This document shows positions 8,920-11,859 of a stretch of DNA of 64,000 nucleotides, piece after piece. The DNA comes from Oceanispirochaeta sp. (GTDB lineage Bacteria; Spirochaetota; Spirochaetia; DSM-2461), in contig CAXXXD010000001.1 in assembly GCA_963663385.2 (NCBI GenBank), positions 521,497 to 585,496 on the forward strand. The letters run 5' to 3'. The position numbers were made by a program, and so were the translations under genes. Below the pieces are notes generated by a model. That model ran no database searches and was not told the DNA's origin. It saw nothing but the letters and a program-made list of their open reading frames with translations. Each line of letters opens with the position of its first letter. Position 1 is the first letter of the stretch.

Positions 8920-9777
8920 TTACTGAGTAGATAATTCAGTATTTGTCCCGTTCTGAACTTTCGGGATATGACTGCTTATATTCGTCAGGGCATGCCCATT
9001 CTCCAGTAATGCTGTGGTGATATCCGGATTTGCTGCTTCCAGTCTCCCGACAGCTTTTTTAGCATCAAAAATATAATCCTTTTCTCCGCAAACATATGTC
9101 AGAGGGACTTTGAGGTTTTTCAGTTCCCTGTCAGTAAAAAGGGCCGGATTGTCCATCCGGTACCTGAAATGCCTGGTTAAAAGGACCTGGAATTGAACGA
9201 CTTCTTCCGGAACCGGAGCTCCGTCAAACATAATAGACAATAATTTTCTTATTCCCTTTTCCCCCTGTATGGAATAGAAGATGGTTTTTATCAGGAATGA
9301 TATTTTCGGCTTTACAATCCCGGTTGGAGCCAGAGCGATGACGCCGGCTGTTTTTTCCGGATAAGTCAGTGCATAGCGGATGACCGCCCACCCCCCAAGG
9401 GACAACCCTCCCAGTAAAGGTTTATCCAGAGCCAGTCTATTAATGACTTCATCGAGCCATAGACTGAAAGTATCGCCTTTTGTATCAAATCTTACAGCTT
9501 CGCTTTTTCCCGGTTCTCCCGGAATATCTAAACTGTATACCCTGTAGCTCTGACTGAGTTTTTCCATATCTCCCATCCACGCCAGTGAATTGGATCCTGA
9601 ACCATGCAGCAACAGAAGGGGGGGATTTTTTTCCTCTCCTGCCGAAACAATGAATGTAGTGCCGTATTTTGTTTCTATGAAGAAATGCTCAACCAGGGGG
9701 AATTGCTCCAGCATGTTATTGTAAAACCGGAGAATGCAGTCTTTTCCCTTTTCTGTTCTGAAAATCTCTTTGTTCAT
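8920..9777 (-). CDS. Alpha/beta-fold hydrolase
   Basis: LLLLHGSG, DIPGEPGKS, GLSLGG nucleophile elbow, GEKD and C-terminal GH. Confidence 0.9.
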   Translation of the reverse strand: MNKEIFRTEKGKDCILRFYNNMLEQFPLVEHFFIETKYGTTFIVSAGEEKNPPLLLLHGSGSNSLAWMGDMEKLSQSYRVYSLDIPGEPGKSEAVRFDTKGDTFSLWLDEVINRLALDKPLLGGLSLGGWAVIRYALTYPEKTAGVIALAPTGIVKPKISFLIKTIFYSIQGEKGIRKLLSIMFDGAPVPEEVVQFQVLLTRHFRYRMDNPALFTDRELKNLKVPLTYVCGEKDYIFDAKKAVGRLEAANPDITTALLENGHALTNISSHIPKVQNGTNTELSTQ

Positions 9778-9836
9778 ATTTCTCTCCTATAAAAAGTCAA
9801 TCATAAGCCTATTAACAAGCTTACAATTGAACCGGA

Positions 9837-10949
9837 TTACCCAGTTTTTACGGCATTGAATGCAGCCGCCTGCATCTTCAAGTACTTATCATCCGGAACC
9901 ATCTTCAACGGATCAAAGGGTTCACGGGTTTTCAATATGGAGTACACTACCGTACTCATCTTTCTTGCAGAGGCGATAATACTCGTGCCGCTGCCCTTGT
10001 TCTTCTTCATCGCTCTGTACTTCGTCATGATACGGTAATTGCCAGTCGTTTTCCGAGTTCTAACCATTCCCATAACACACTGAACAAATGCCGTTCTCAG
10101 TTCTACAGCCCCTCTCTTTGTTATATGCCCATGATGAATCGTCTCATTGGAGTTCTGCACCCATGGTACAAGACCGGCATAAGCCGAATACTTCTTGGCA
10201 CTGGCGTACCGCTTGATATCATCCGTATAGGCCCTAATAGTCGATGCCGTTATCAATCCGACTCCCGGGATCGTCTGCAATAACTGTACATCCTCATCTT
10301 CCTTTACAAGTTCCAGCAGGACTTTCTCTAACTGCTTGACCTGGTTCGAAACCTGATCTATCGTAGAAAGCAGCGGTTCTATCGCTTTGGCAGCGCTTCC
10401 GAAACTCCTATGGTCCACGAGACCGATGAGGATGCGCTGCCTTTCTTTTTTACTCTGCAGCGCAGCTCTTTTTGTTTCAATTCCATACCCTAGAAGCAGT
10501 CCGTGAACCTGATTCTTCAAAGATACGACTGATTTAACAAGGATAGTTCTGGATTTAAGAACTCTACGGATATCCTCACTCTCCTGAGAACAAAGCTGTG
10601 ATTCGGGAAGCATATCTTTTTCCAAGAACTCTGCTAGAGTTCTGGCATCATGCTTATCCGTCTTTTTCACTGATTCATTTACAACTTTGAATTTCAGTGT
10701 ATTCACAACCACCACCTCAATCCCTGCTAGCAATAGCTTGTTACGGAAGAACCGGGCATTTCCTGTTGATTCCACTGCAGCCCTAACATCAAGGCCCTCT
10801 TCTGTATAGGACACTGCTTTCTCAAGAAATGCTCTGTAACCGTCCTCAGAGGTCGGATACATTCCTGATTCACAAATGCTTCTATCATCACTCAGGAAAC
10901 AGACTGTTAACTGGGATTTGTGCAGATCCACTCCGATACTCATCTTCAT
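9837..10949 (-). CDS. IS110-family transposase/recombinase (370 aa)
   Basis: RuvC-like DEDD motifs IGVDLHK, AVESTG and KTDKHDA; C-terminal Tnp domain TIPGVG and SAYAGLVP..QNS..HHGHITKRG. Start placed at ATG 10949 behind an ATAGGAG RBS. Confidence 0.95.
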   Translation of the reverse strand: MKMSIGVDLHKSQLTVCFLSDDRSICESGMYPTSEDGYRAFLEKAVSYTEEGLDVRAAVESTGNARFFRNKLLLAGIEVVVVNTLKFKVVNESVKKTDKHDARTLAEFLEKDMLPESQLCSQESEDIRRVLKSRTILVKSVVSLKNQVHGLLLGYGIETKRAALQSKKERQRILIGLVDHRSFGSAAKAIEPLLSTIDQVSNQVKQLEKVLLELVKEDEDVQLLQTIPGVGLITASTIRAYTDDIKRYASAKKYSAYAGLVPWVQNSNETIHHGHITKRGAVELRTAFVQCVMGMVRTRKTTGNYRIMTKYRAMKKNKGSGTSIIASARKMSTVVYSILKTREPFDPLKMVPDDKYLKMQAAAFNAVKTG

Positions 10950-10964
10950 ACCTTCGCTCCTATT

Positions 10965-11149
10965 GCCTAAAACAGCGCCTGTACGGTGAATTGATTCCAT
11001 TCTCCTATCCGGTCTCGAAGACCATTGAATGTTTCGGTCACGGCTCTTCATTCTCCTGTACGGTCTCGGAGACCAGTAAAAATGGCGAACAGTAACCTGG
11101 CTGTTCTAAACGATGTTTAGAACATTGTATCAATCCACAAGCCTATGAA
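10965..11149 (-). ncRNA. Candidate bridge/seek RNA in the IS110 leader
   Basis: Perfect 10-bp hairpin TGTTCTAAAC-3 nt-GTTTAGAACA (11102-11124). Two 27-bp modules, 24/27 identical (10998-11024 and 11049-11075), carry ATAGGAG and ACAGGAG on the minus strand, matching the donor end and the target flank. Boundaries approximate. Confidence 0.65.
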
Positions 11150-11203
11150 GACTTTTTATCATTCCTCCTGTTAATGCCGAATAATTCTGGTAGGGGGCAT
11201 TTC

Positions 11204-11659
11204 CTATTCATTGGAATTGTCCTGCTTCAATAGCTGATCAATTATCAGCAGCAATCTGCTTACCAGCTGGGGAGATCCGTGAAATATAATTTTCCCCTTC
11301 AGCTCTTCTTCAAAATACATAAAATCAAATCTGCCTTGACCGTCTTCCGGGAGTTTAGAGTTCATTACTGCATTTATAGTATTGGAAATTCTCATAGCCT
11401 GATCCTTTCCTCCAATAAAACAATCAATAACCGCTGTTGTAAGAGGGGACTCCCTGATTTCAGAACTCTCCGGTGTATATTGTGGTGATTCCCTGATCTC
11501 TTCACCTGTATACACGCTTAAATCGTGTCCGCTTATCCTGTAACTTCTACCGACTTTTGTTGCCGTTAATTTGCCCTCCCGTATAAAACGCTGGACTGTT
11601 TTTTCATGAAGTTGCAGCAGTTCTGCTGCCTGTGCAACTGTATACCAGACTTCTTTCAT
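11204..11659 (-). CDS. Excisionase-like HTH (HTH_17) DNA-binding domain protein
   Basis: WYTVAQAAELLQLHEKTVQRFIREGKLTATKVGRSYRIS; TTGACA-17-TAATGT promoter-like signal upstream. Confidence 0.85.
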   Translation of the reverse strand: MKEVWYTVAQAAELLQLHEKTVQRFIREGKLTATKVGRSYRISGHDLSVYTGEEIRESPQYTPESSEIRESPLTTAVIDCFIGGKDQAMRISNTINAVMNSKLPEDGQGRFDFMYFEEELKGKIIFHGSPQLVSRLLLIIDQLLKQDNSNE

Positions 11660-11859
11660 TCCTTAAAACTCCTTAATGAGTTGCGATAAGTAACATTAGG
11701 ATGCATTAGCCTTCTTGTCAAGAAGTTTTGGGGAATCTTTTGGGGGAAATGAAAAATAATACCTGTTGTTTGTATCAAATCATTTGATCGGGTTTATTGA
11801 TCATCTGAGGGGTTAGGCAAACAACGGATCTGAGGTATTTCTTATGTGAGGAATTCGGA

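Follow-up and report, generated by a model that had tools for sequence, protein, structure and literature searches.

A putative bridge RNA with four readable guides in an IS110-family element inserted at translation starts of Oceanispirochaeta

Bridge (or seek) RNAs were first described in 2024 and, to our knowledge, there are few natural elements for which all four guides have been assigned and for which the target has a clear biological logic. The subject here is an insertion sequence (IS) of the IS110 family in a stretch of 64,000 nucleotides (nt) of Oceanispirochaeta sp. DNA (assembly GCA_963663385.2, contig CAXXXD010000001.1, positions 521,497 to 585,496), this whole stretch being called the window. 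The element lies at 9784-11164 of the window, on the minus strand, and measures 1381 base pairs (bp) with its AG core counted once. Its 215-nt leader, located upstream of the transposase gene, very probably encodes a bridge RNA in which all four guides can be read. All coordinates are those of the window, and those given for the element, its leader and the adjoining target halves refer to features of the minus strand.

In IS621 each loop of the bridge RNA consists of a stem, the left guide, a stem-loop and the right guide, and the left guides pair with the DNA's bottom strand (PMC11208158, PMC11208160). The IS1111 group has subterminal inverted repeats of 7-17 bp (PMC11208160). In RNAs of the IS1111 type the match to the top strand is placed 5' of the match to the bottom strand, whereas in the IS110-type element ISEc21 it is placed 3' (bioRxiv 10.1101/2024.04.26.591405). 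The same preprint describes that the upstream non-coding region of ISEc21 is needed for circle formation and transposition, that this element has a promoter at the circle junction and inserts with no duplication, and that natural reprogramming occurred in a relative; it also describes ISMtsp17, a relative of IS1111 that has its non-coding region upstream. The same circle-junction promoter arrangement has been described for IS621 and ISEc21 (PMC11208158, bioRxiv 10.1101/2024.04.26.591405). A preprint of 2026 reports 86 covariance models of diverse bridge RNAs, so that the structural diversity of these RNAs as such is already known, and models that cover the clade of the element in the window may already exist. 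The top strand of the ISEc21 preprint is taken here as the transposase-sense strand.

The leader and its four guides

The leader is composed of a 5' hairpin followed by two homologous modules. A preliminary description, made from the letters of the window, had pointed out a perfect 10-bp hairpin and two 27-nt modules, and all of these were found again. The hairpin, here called stem-loop 1 (SL1), occupies 11102-11124, its stem being formed by 11102-11111 and 11115-11124. The modules (11075-11049 and 11024-10998) agree at 24 of 27 positions (89%) and were recovered independently as a direct repeat of 32 nt (10998-11029 and 11049-11080, 84% identical, spacing 51). Both are present, in the same order, in all 28 aligned orthologous leaders, and each of these orthologues has at the position of SL1 a hairpin of its own with a different sequence. 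It had been suggested that the two loops arose by a tandem duplication that is still visible; the likeness of the modules is, however, conserved family-wide (mean of 0.77 within an element against 0.74 between elements) and does not show a recent event of this kind. The third partial copy that had been reported is an exact match (10978-10987 equals 11055-11064) but belongs to a conserved motif, CCGnAnAGG; it was rejected as a guide because this motif is unchanged in orthologues whose target guide differs.

The fold was derived from the alignment of the 28 distinct orthologous leaders with RNAalifold and an explicit count of pairs. Five helices are supported, namely P1, P3, the hairpins H-a and H-b, and a 2-bp CA:UG closure of module 2. 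Among the 809 helix cells 96.7% are paired, against 90.4% in shuffles (none of 500 as high), and the value falls to 22-41% when the partners are slid. Twelve helix pairs have changed on both sides among the leaders and 106 of the 809 cells are G-U. On the transposase-sense strand 782 of the 809 cells pair, compared with 680 on the opposite strand, and this asymmetry indicates that the folded molecule is an RNA of transposase sense.

Helix 1 (P1), in which four of the five pairs have changed on both sides, closes the whole two-module domain, with SL1 also enclosed, by joining GUGGA (11134-11138) to UUCAC (10986-10990); in the window it extends to 11129-11138 with 10986-10995. Helix 2 (P3) is the basal stem of module 1, in which GGUUAC-U-GUUC (11087-11097) pairs with GAGC-C-GUGACC (11036-11046), and 96.4% of its cells are paired. 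Hairpin H-a of module 1 (helix 3, 11061-11075) shows covariation in its local pairing, and hairpin H-b of module 2 (helix 5, 11010-11024) is 100% paired with three pairs changed on both sides. As far as the fold alone is concerned, the leader has the two loops that characterize a bridge RNA, in a structured RNA in the non-coding end by the transposase.

A layout of the IS621 style could also be drawn, with ACAGGAG and AUAGGAG each at the opening of a loop that has its stem-loop downstream, and with the two palindromic hairpins joined in one long basal stem. In the centroid fold computed for the window the two hairpin regions do pair together, and in the published scheme of IS621 the left guide comes first. 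The hairpins of the orthologues, however, differ from each other and each carries local compensatory changes (for example AGCC/GGCU against GACC/GGUC), which means that they pair locally and that a long stem between the modules is not conserved; the H-a:H-b stem was rejected on these grounds. In addition, the segments that co-vary with the top strands sit 5' of each hairpin, and the IS621-style layout is extremely improbable.

Inside the transposase gene, a stretch of 22-23 nt at 10410-10432 is 77-78% complementary to both modules (hairpin and guide), partly due to the palindromic nature of the hairpins.

The guides were compared with the DNA around related elements, using 76 loci from one scan of a genome collection and 80 loci from one metagenome scan, the latter retained from 259 matches. 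A pattern parser was run on 148 loci, yielding the target guide together with the left flank in 105, the donor guide together with the left end in 112 and the start-side loop together with the right flank in 105; loci that lacked an end or a module, or that were degenerate, were excluded from the guide tests. In the window the letters across the left junction are ACAGGAG|GAATG, and those across the right one are ATAGGAG|AGAAATATG. The host left target half with the core, ACAGGAG (11165-11171), is the original Shine-Dalgarno (SD) sequence of the downstream gene, and the host right target half, AGAAATATG (9775-9783), ends in the start codon (9777-9775) of this gene.

The left target guide, ACAGGAG (in general NNAGGAG), is located at 11053-11059, 3' of H-a, and has the sense of the left flank plus core, so that it would pair with the bottom strand. 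It had already been proposed as a guide, with the expectation that it would follow the target sites in orthologous leaders while constant modules would speak against it. This is what the orthologues bear out: the modules are not constant, and positions -7 and -6 of the guide agree with the left flank in a fraction of 0.77 and 0.88 of the cases, respectively, while permuting the guides between elements gives 0.29 and 0.53 (none of 5000 permutations as high; 20 guide variants, 95 distinct sites). Position -8 gave no signal (0.28 against 0.27 permuted), and the U that precedes ACAGGAG is therefore not counted as part of the guide. Exact 8-mers are common to the target guide and the flank in loci L027, L032 and L060. 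The left donor guide, AUAGGAG (11002-11008), lies 3' of H-b and has the sense of the right end of the IS plus core. Its proposed role was also sustained, by match and not by co-variation: in 119 of 122 parsed loci the guide is identical to the final 7 nt of the right end.

The right-hand guides, which the preliminary description had left unassigned, were found 5' of each hairpin, and the order of the guides is consequently the reverse of the IS621 scheme. Of the IS621-like arrangement that had been proposed, the succession of stem-loop, target module and donor module stands, and the order of the guides within the modules is reversed. The right donor guide, CAUUC (11027-11031, 5' of H-b), is complementary to the left end of the IS, GAATG, beside the core. 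Among 27 guide sets of this type 22 are perfectly complementary to the left end, two only with wobble pairs and three with one mismatch. The left end varies at +2 to +4, and the eight variants co-vary with it to a degree reached by none of 5000 permutations. Seven guide/end pairs are clean (CATAC/GTATG, CGTGC/GCACG, CATGC/GCATG, CATCC/GGATG, CACTC/GAGTG, CGTTC/GAACG and the standard CATTC/GAATG) and the eighth, from one clade, is imperfect (CGAAC/GTCTG).

The right target guide, CAUUUU (11079-11084, 5' of H-a and followed by a linker at 11076-11078), is complementary to the top strand of the ATG and the three preceding nt. The start-side loop as a whole is CAU plus six variable nt, with signal at the three positions beside CAU (n1-n3) and none at the next three. 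The complementarity amounts to 0.52 against 0.365 permuted (none of 5000 as high; 37 variants, 100 sites), a signal that emerged only after the 80 metagenome loci had been added and the register had been set next to the ATG. The start-codon guide appears to be a real but tolerant second half-site that is anchored on the start codon, on a signal that is weak but significant, with approximately three unpaired nt between this half-site and the core. Segments in the loops that co-vary with target and donor DNA, as expected of a bridge RNA, were thus found for three of the guides. The RNA would read a split target composed of a Shine-Dalgarno sequence, about 6 nt and then ATG.

It can hardly be credited that the site is chosen by protein alone, that is, by a transposase reading an AGGAG-type sequence, with modules that are DNA-level binding sites or have no function. 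A protein could read the invariant parts of the target (AGGAG and ATG) as well as the ends, and a 10-bp subterminal inverted repeat is present in the element. Nevertheless, flank positions -7/-6 and left-end positions +2 to +4 change along with segments of the leader, which is not explained by a fixed protein surface. The 106 G-U cells and the weaker pairing of the opposite strand (680 against 782 of 809) point to a folded RNA instead, and the transposase belongs to a family that NCBI names RNA-guided.

Some related loci have peculiarities of their own. In OY776510.1, which carries a relative with 79% identity, several copies (loci L015, L016, L022 and L029) are preceded by a host hairpin that recurs from copy to copy, and after this hairpin come letters that agree with the right end of the element itself along as many as 14 nt (ACTTTTTATAGGAG at L016 and L022); in this relative the target and donor guides differ by one or two letters only. 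At 2330-2378 of locus L039 the right end occurs twice in tandem, about 29 nt apart, and in the leader of L064 the target-guide segment occurs twice in tandem; both may trace aberrant recombination. Following the donor guide, the L035 group has GGCACGAU, and it was considered whether the RNA carries here a conserved mimic of the left end; this reading was discarded, being inconsistent across orthologues.

Insertion between Shine-Dalgarno sequence and start codon

The genome holds ten copies of the IS, as found by a DNA search, eight of them identical over 1381 bp and two with one single-nucleotide difference each. Every one is placed between a Shine-Dalgarno sequence and a start codon. The left flank is ACAGGAG in eight copies, GCAGGAG in one and AAAGGAG in one, and on the right side of all ten there are 6-8 nt and then the ATG of an open reading frame of at least 98 amino acids (aa) that runs in the same direction as the transposase. 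The genome contains ACAGGAG 1462 times, and just 161 of the 1454 free occurrences are placed like an SD sequence. The right end of the element always finishes in TTGACTTTTTATAGGAG, which is conserved in orthologues, and the downstream gene therefore regains a Shine-Dalgarno sequence at the same distance from its start codon. In the window the gene whose start site was hit encodes an alpha/beta hydrolase (8920-9777, minus strand); the upstream neighbour (11204-11659) encodes an HTH_17 protein with a helix-turn-helix of the excisionase type. The left junction at 11153-11166 reads AGGAGGAATGATAA, that is, the old Shine-Dalgarno sequence followed almost at once by an ATG and a frame of 10 codons to TGA, a gap that looks too short for efficient initiation.

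A natural empty site was found in run X6, in which a contig joins 9783 to 11165 and skips exactly 1381 bases, five letters being ambiguous. It follows that AGGAG is common to target and element and that there is no duplication. The contig has a low depth (2) and comes from a related isolate, and in the same run the element itself has a depth of 8.5. No target duplication beyond the common AGGAG was seen in the ten copies either. The left and right junctions of the element have AGGAG in common and those of locus L061 only GAG, which places the exchanged core at the last AG; from this one locus we infer that the exchanged dinucleotide is the last AG (CT on the other strand).

Proximity to start codons extends beyond the window's own clade. 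All 36 printed right ends of genome loci sit a few nt before a host ATG wherever the flank is present, those of a Lentisphaeria family with a transposase of just 33% identity among them. Loci L067-L085 (Lentisphaeria and relatives, transposases 32-35% identical) end in ATCATAGGAG just before a host ATG, have left flanks of the type GAAAGGAG and contain a matching GGAAAGGAG in their leader. As these elements are also at host ATGs, the targeting of translation starts predates the clade of the window. The spacing from GGAG to ATG among 100 sites is 6 in 51, 5 in 17, 7 in 12 and 8 in 10. At 25 sites occupied by elements with the same loop as in the window, 64-84% of the letters at +3 to +7 are A, with T/G at +8/+9; at the free SD-like CAGGAG sites of the genome (n=413) A makes up only 32-36% at +3 to +7.

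By analogy with IS621 and the IS1111-type elements, the DEDD transposase would bind the leader RNA, which would pair with the circle junction and with the target, and strands would be exchanged at the AG/CT core with no duplication. The element would then come to lie ahead of the start codon and behind the Shine-Dalgarno sequence, in the orientation of the gene, and its right end would provide a replacement (ATAGGAG) at the same distance from the ATG.

Several points weigh against the identification of the leader as a bridge RNA with these guides. The RNA is predicted here from DNA sequence, none of the listed sequencing runs being recorded as RNA and the four runs compared consisting of contigs of unspecified kind that are uninformative on transcription. 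The order of its guides is opposite to that of the only structurally solved bridge RNA, so that the analogy assumes DNA bound the other way round. A scan of 9500-11700 on both strands with Rfam (E ≤10) returned three chance-level hits only, the best with E = 5.5, and Rfam 15 may lack a bridge RNA model. The left donor guide and the right end are both invariant, so their pairing rests on identity and not on co-variation. Only about half of the three variable positions of the start-codon guide are complementary, and when this guide was evaluated at fixed registers, with 19 variants, the value of the best register was reached by 87 of 2000 permutations, which is not convincing. The spacing from start codon to core ranges from 5 to 8 and A-rich spacers before start codons are common anyway. 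The exact position of the core depends on the single locus L061. Finally, the restriction to SD sites could partly reflect the loss of harmful insertions and not recognition.

Transposase, transcription and the element at the first hairpin

The transposase gene (9837-10949) encodes 370 aa from a conserved MKMSIGVD start and has its own AGGAG at 10957-10961; gene callers often place the start 17 aa upstream (387 aa), within the leader. The protein contains the domains PF01548 (DEDD_Tnp_IS110, E 8.7e-21) and PF02371 (Transposase_20, E 4.6e-19) and scores 228 bits with NF033542, "IS110 family RNA-guided transposase", for which the cut-off is 140. The presence of both domains, together with site-specific insertion free of duplication, places the element among the IS110-family DEDD (RNA-guided) elements. 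The serine motif, GLVPWVQNSN, has the spacing of IS1111 but N rather than G after the serine, and an identity of 31% with the IS4321 transposase extends over 237 aa. The stop codon is separated from the right end of the element by 53 bp. The family is abundant in environmental metagenomes, 3236 of 8000 candidate proteins having scored at E ≤1e-20, and the source names of the relatives are generic only; the best match in a plasmid collection is on a Thiospirochaeta plasmid (74.9% identity, generic names only). Many of the closest relatives are on contigs of 1.2-2 kb, approximately the size of the element, which fits assembly breaks at a multi-copy repeat.

The subterminal inverted repeat consists of 10 nt, 100% complementary between the left arm ATAAAAAGTC (11150-11159) and the right arm GACTTTTTAT (9789-9798), which are located 5 nt inside the left and the right end, respectively. 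In the leader as integrated, a promoter scan of the minus strand detected nothing resembling a sigma-70 site. An extended -10-like sequence, TGATAAAAA (11153-11161, read by eye), overlaps the left arm and a -35-like TTGACT (9795-9800) overlaps the right arm. We infer that the circle junction would set TTGACT and TGATAAAAA 17 nt apart, which predicts a promoter that is rebuilt on the circle. The transposase would be expressed either from this promoter or by host read-through. In the right end, a hairpin of 15 pairs followed by CTTTTTAT (9797-9830) is terminator-like, and by eye the orthologues have hairpins in this position too. The 3' arm of the window's hairpin has its extended inverted-repeat partner at 11136-11149 in the left end. 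Should this hairpin stop transcription, the host gene that follows would depend on another promoter.

A three-strand element could be formed at the first hairpin. Segment a2, GCUGUUUUAGGC (10965-10976), just upstream of the ribosome-binding site (RBS) of the transposase, has its complement in the 3' strand of SL1 (11100-11111) and shares letters with the end of the third partial copy. All 28 orthologues offer two partners to this strand of SL1, its own 5' strand or the pre-RBS segment, the sequences being different, and the latter pairing crosses P1. The duplex has a mean of -17.5 kcal/mol with the element's own segment and -9.75 kcal/mol with those of other elements (none of 5000 permutations as stable). 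The complementarity of the pre-RBS segment to SL1 is clearly conserved. A simple switch of two states is not supported by the calculations, given that nested folds in which the alternative pairing is forced are on average 6.3 kcal/mol less stable and are the more stable ones in only one of 28 leaders. The three-strand element may be a switch, a pseudoknot or a processing site.

This conserved alternative partner in 28 of 28 orthologues would also suit a leader that is mainly a regulatory 5' untranslated region, with the SD-like AGGAGAAUG repeats as decoys, the three-strand element as an attenuator and the likeness to the flanks as a by-product of insertion. Both modules contain AGGAG with AUG close behind, and a terminator-like hairpin had been flagged at 11087-11106. 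Decoys, however, need not track positions -7/-6 of the flank of each element, nor need CAUUC track the left end. The U-run of the flagged terminator is a variable guide loop that is not conserved, and the site was rejected for this reason. A regulatory role of the three-strand element would moreover be compatible with guide function. A purely regulatory leader is accordingly considered very unlikely.

Some wider implications can be drawn. The sequence and its orthologues yield a complete map of the guides, and the target is a functional signal (ribosome-binding site and start codon) and not a repeat. An insertion of this design should keep the host gene translatable. The tolerant split half-site and the alternative pairing of SL1 could shed light on the control of recombination by the spacing of guides and the folding of the RNA. 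We put forward only tentatively, as a possibility whose parts would all have to hold together, that this is a widespread transposon lineage with a guide RNA hard-wired to translation starts, in which a split target, made up of start codon and Shine-Dalgarno sequence, is read by the invariant CAU and AGGAG, and in which the gene receives a new Shine-Dalgarno sequence from the right end. In the same tentative picture the element, having no promoter of its own, would ride the host operon, the three-strand element would be a conformational switch that couples folding or processing of the guide RNA to expression of the transposase, and the element would be a living intermediate of the IS110 and IS1111 layouts, with the polarity and repeats of IS1111 and an upstream RNA.

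Comparison with known systems

Insertion between a ribosome-binding site and a start codon is also a habit of the IS900 group, mycobacterial members of the IS110 family, in which the transposase points away from the targeted gene and not, as in the window, in the same direction. IS900 rarely disrupts coding sequences, and the hed open reading frame on its complementary strand has no ribosome-binding site or start codon of its own (PMC8141618). Searches of the literature on insertion sites of IS110 and IS900 returned no paper that ties a bridge RNA to an SD/ATG target, and no bridge RNA analysis of IS900 was encountered.

The resemblance to IS621 concerns the general plan. In both cases the RNA is in the non-coding end upstream of a DEDD transposase and has a 5' stem-loop, a target loop and a donor loop; the two loops resemble each other, and in each of them a stem is followed by one guide, a stem-loop and the other guide; the guides of each loop pair one with each DNA strand around a 2-nt core; and one strand of this core reads CT (in the window element, AG is on the strand of transposase sense). 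On the other hand, the guides that pair with the bottom strand are 3' of the hairpin in both modules of the window and 5' in IS621. The long guides (7 nt including the core) are on the 3' side here, those of the 5' side leave the core unpaired, and the second half-site of the target is about three unpaired nt away from the core. Unlike in IS621, moreover, a long-range helix surrounds both modules and the closing stem of the donor module itself has just 2 bp.

ISEc21 is similar in its upstream non-coding region, its insertion free of duplication and its circle-junction promoter, which is predicted for the window element, but its guide order is the opposite one, with the top-strand match 3'. The subterminal inverted repeat of 10 bp also departs from the 2-3 bp reported for the IS110 group. 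This length is like that of the IS1111 group, and the top-strand match is 5' of the bottom-strand match as in the IS1111 seekRNAs of ISEc11, ISKpn4 and ISPa11. The spacing of the serine motif agrees as well (GLVPWVQNSN here, GL-P----S(t)G there). The differences from IS1111 are that the RNA is upstream of the transposase and not downstream, and that the transposase has 370 aa rather than 330-350, with N and not G after the serine. The putative bridge RNA is a variant in three respects, namely the combination of its guide order with its position, a target split into SD and ATG, and the additional three-strand element. Compared by its traits and with IS4321, the element appears to mix features of the IS110 and IS1111 types, a mixture relevant to the question of how, in these elements, the RNA gene passed from one end to the other.

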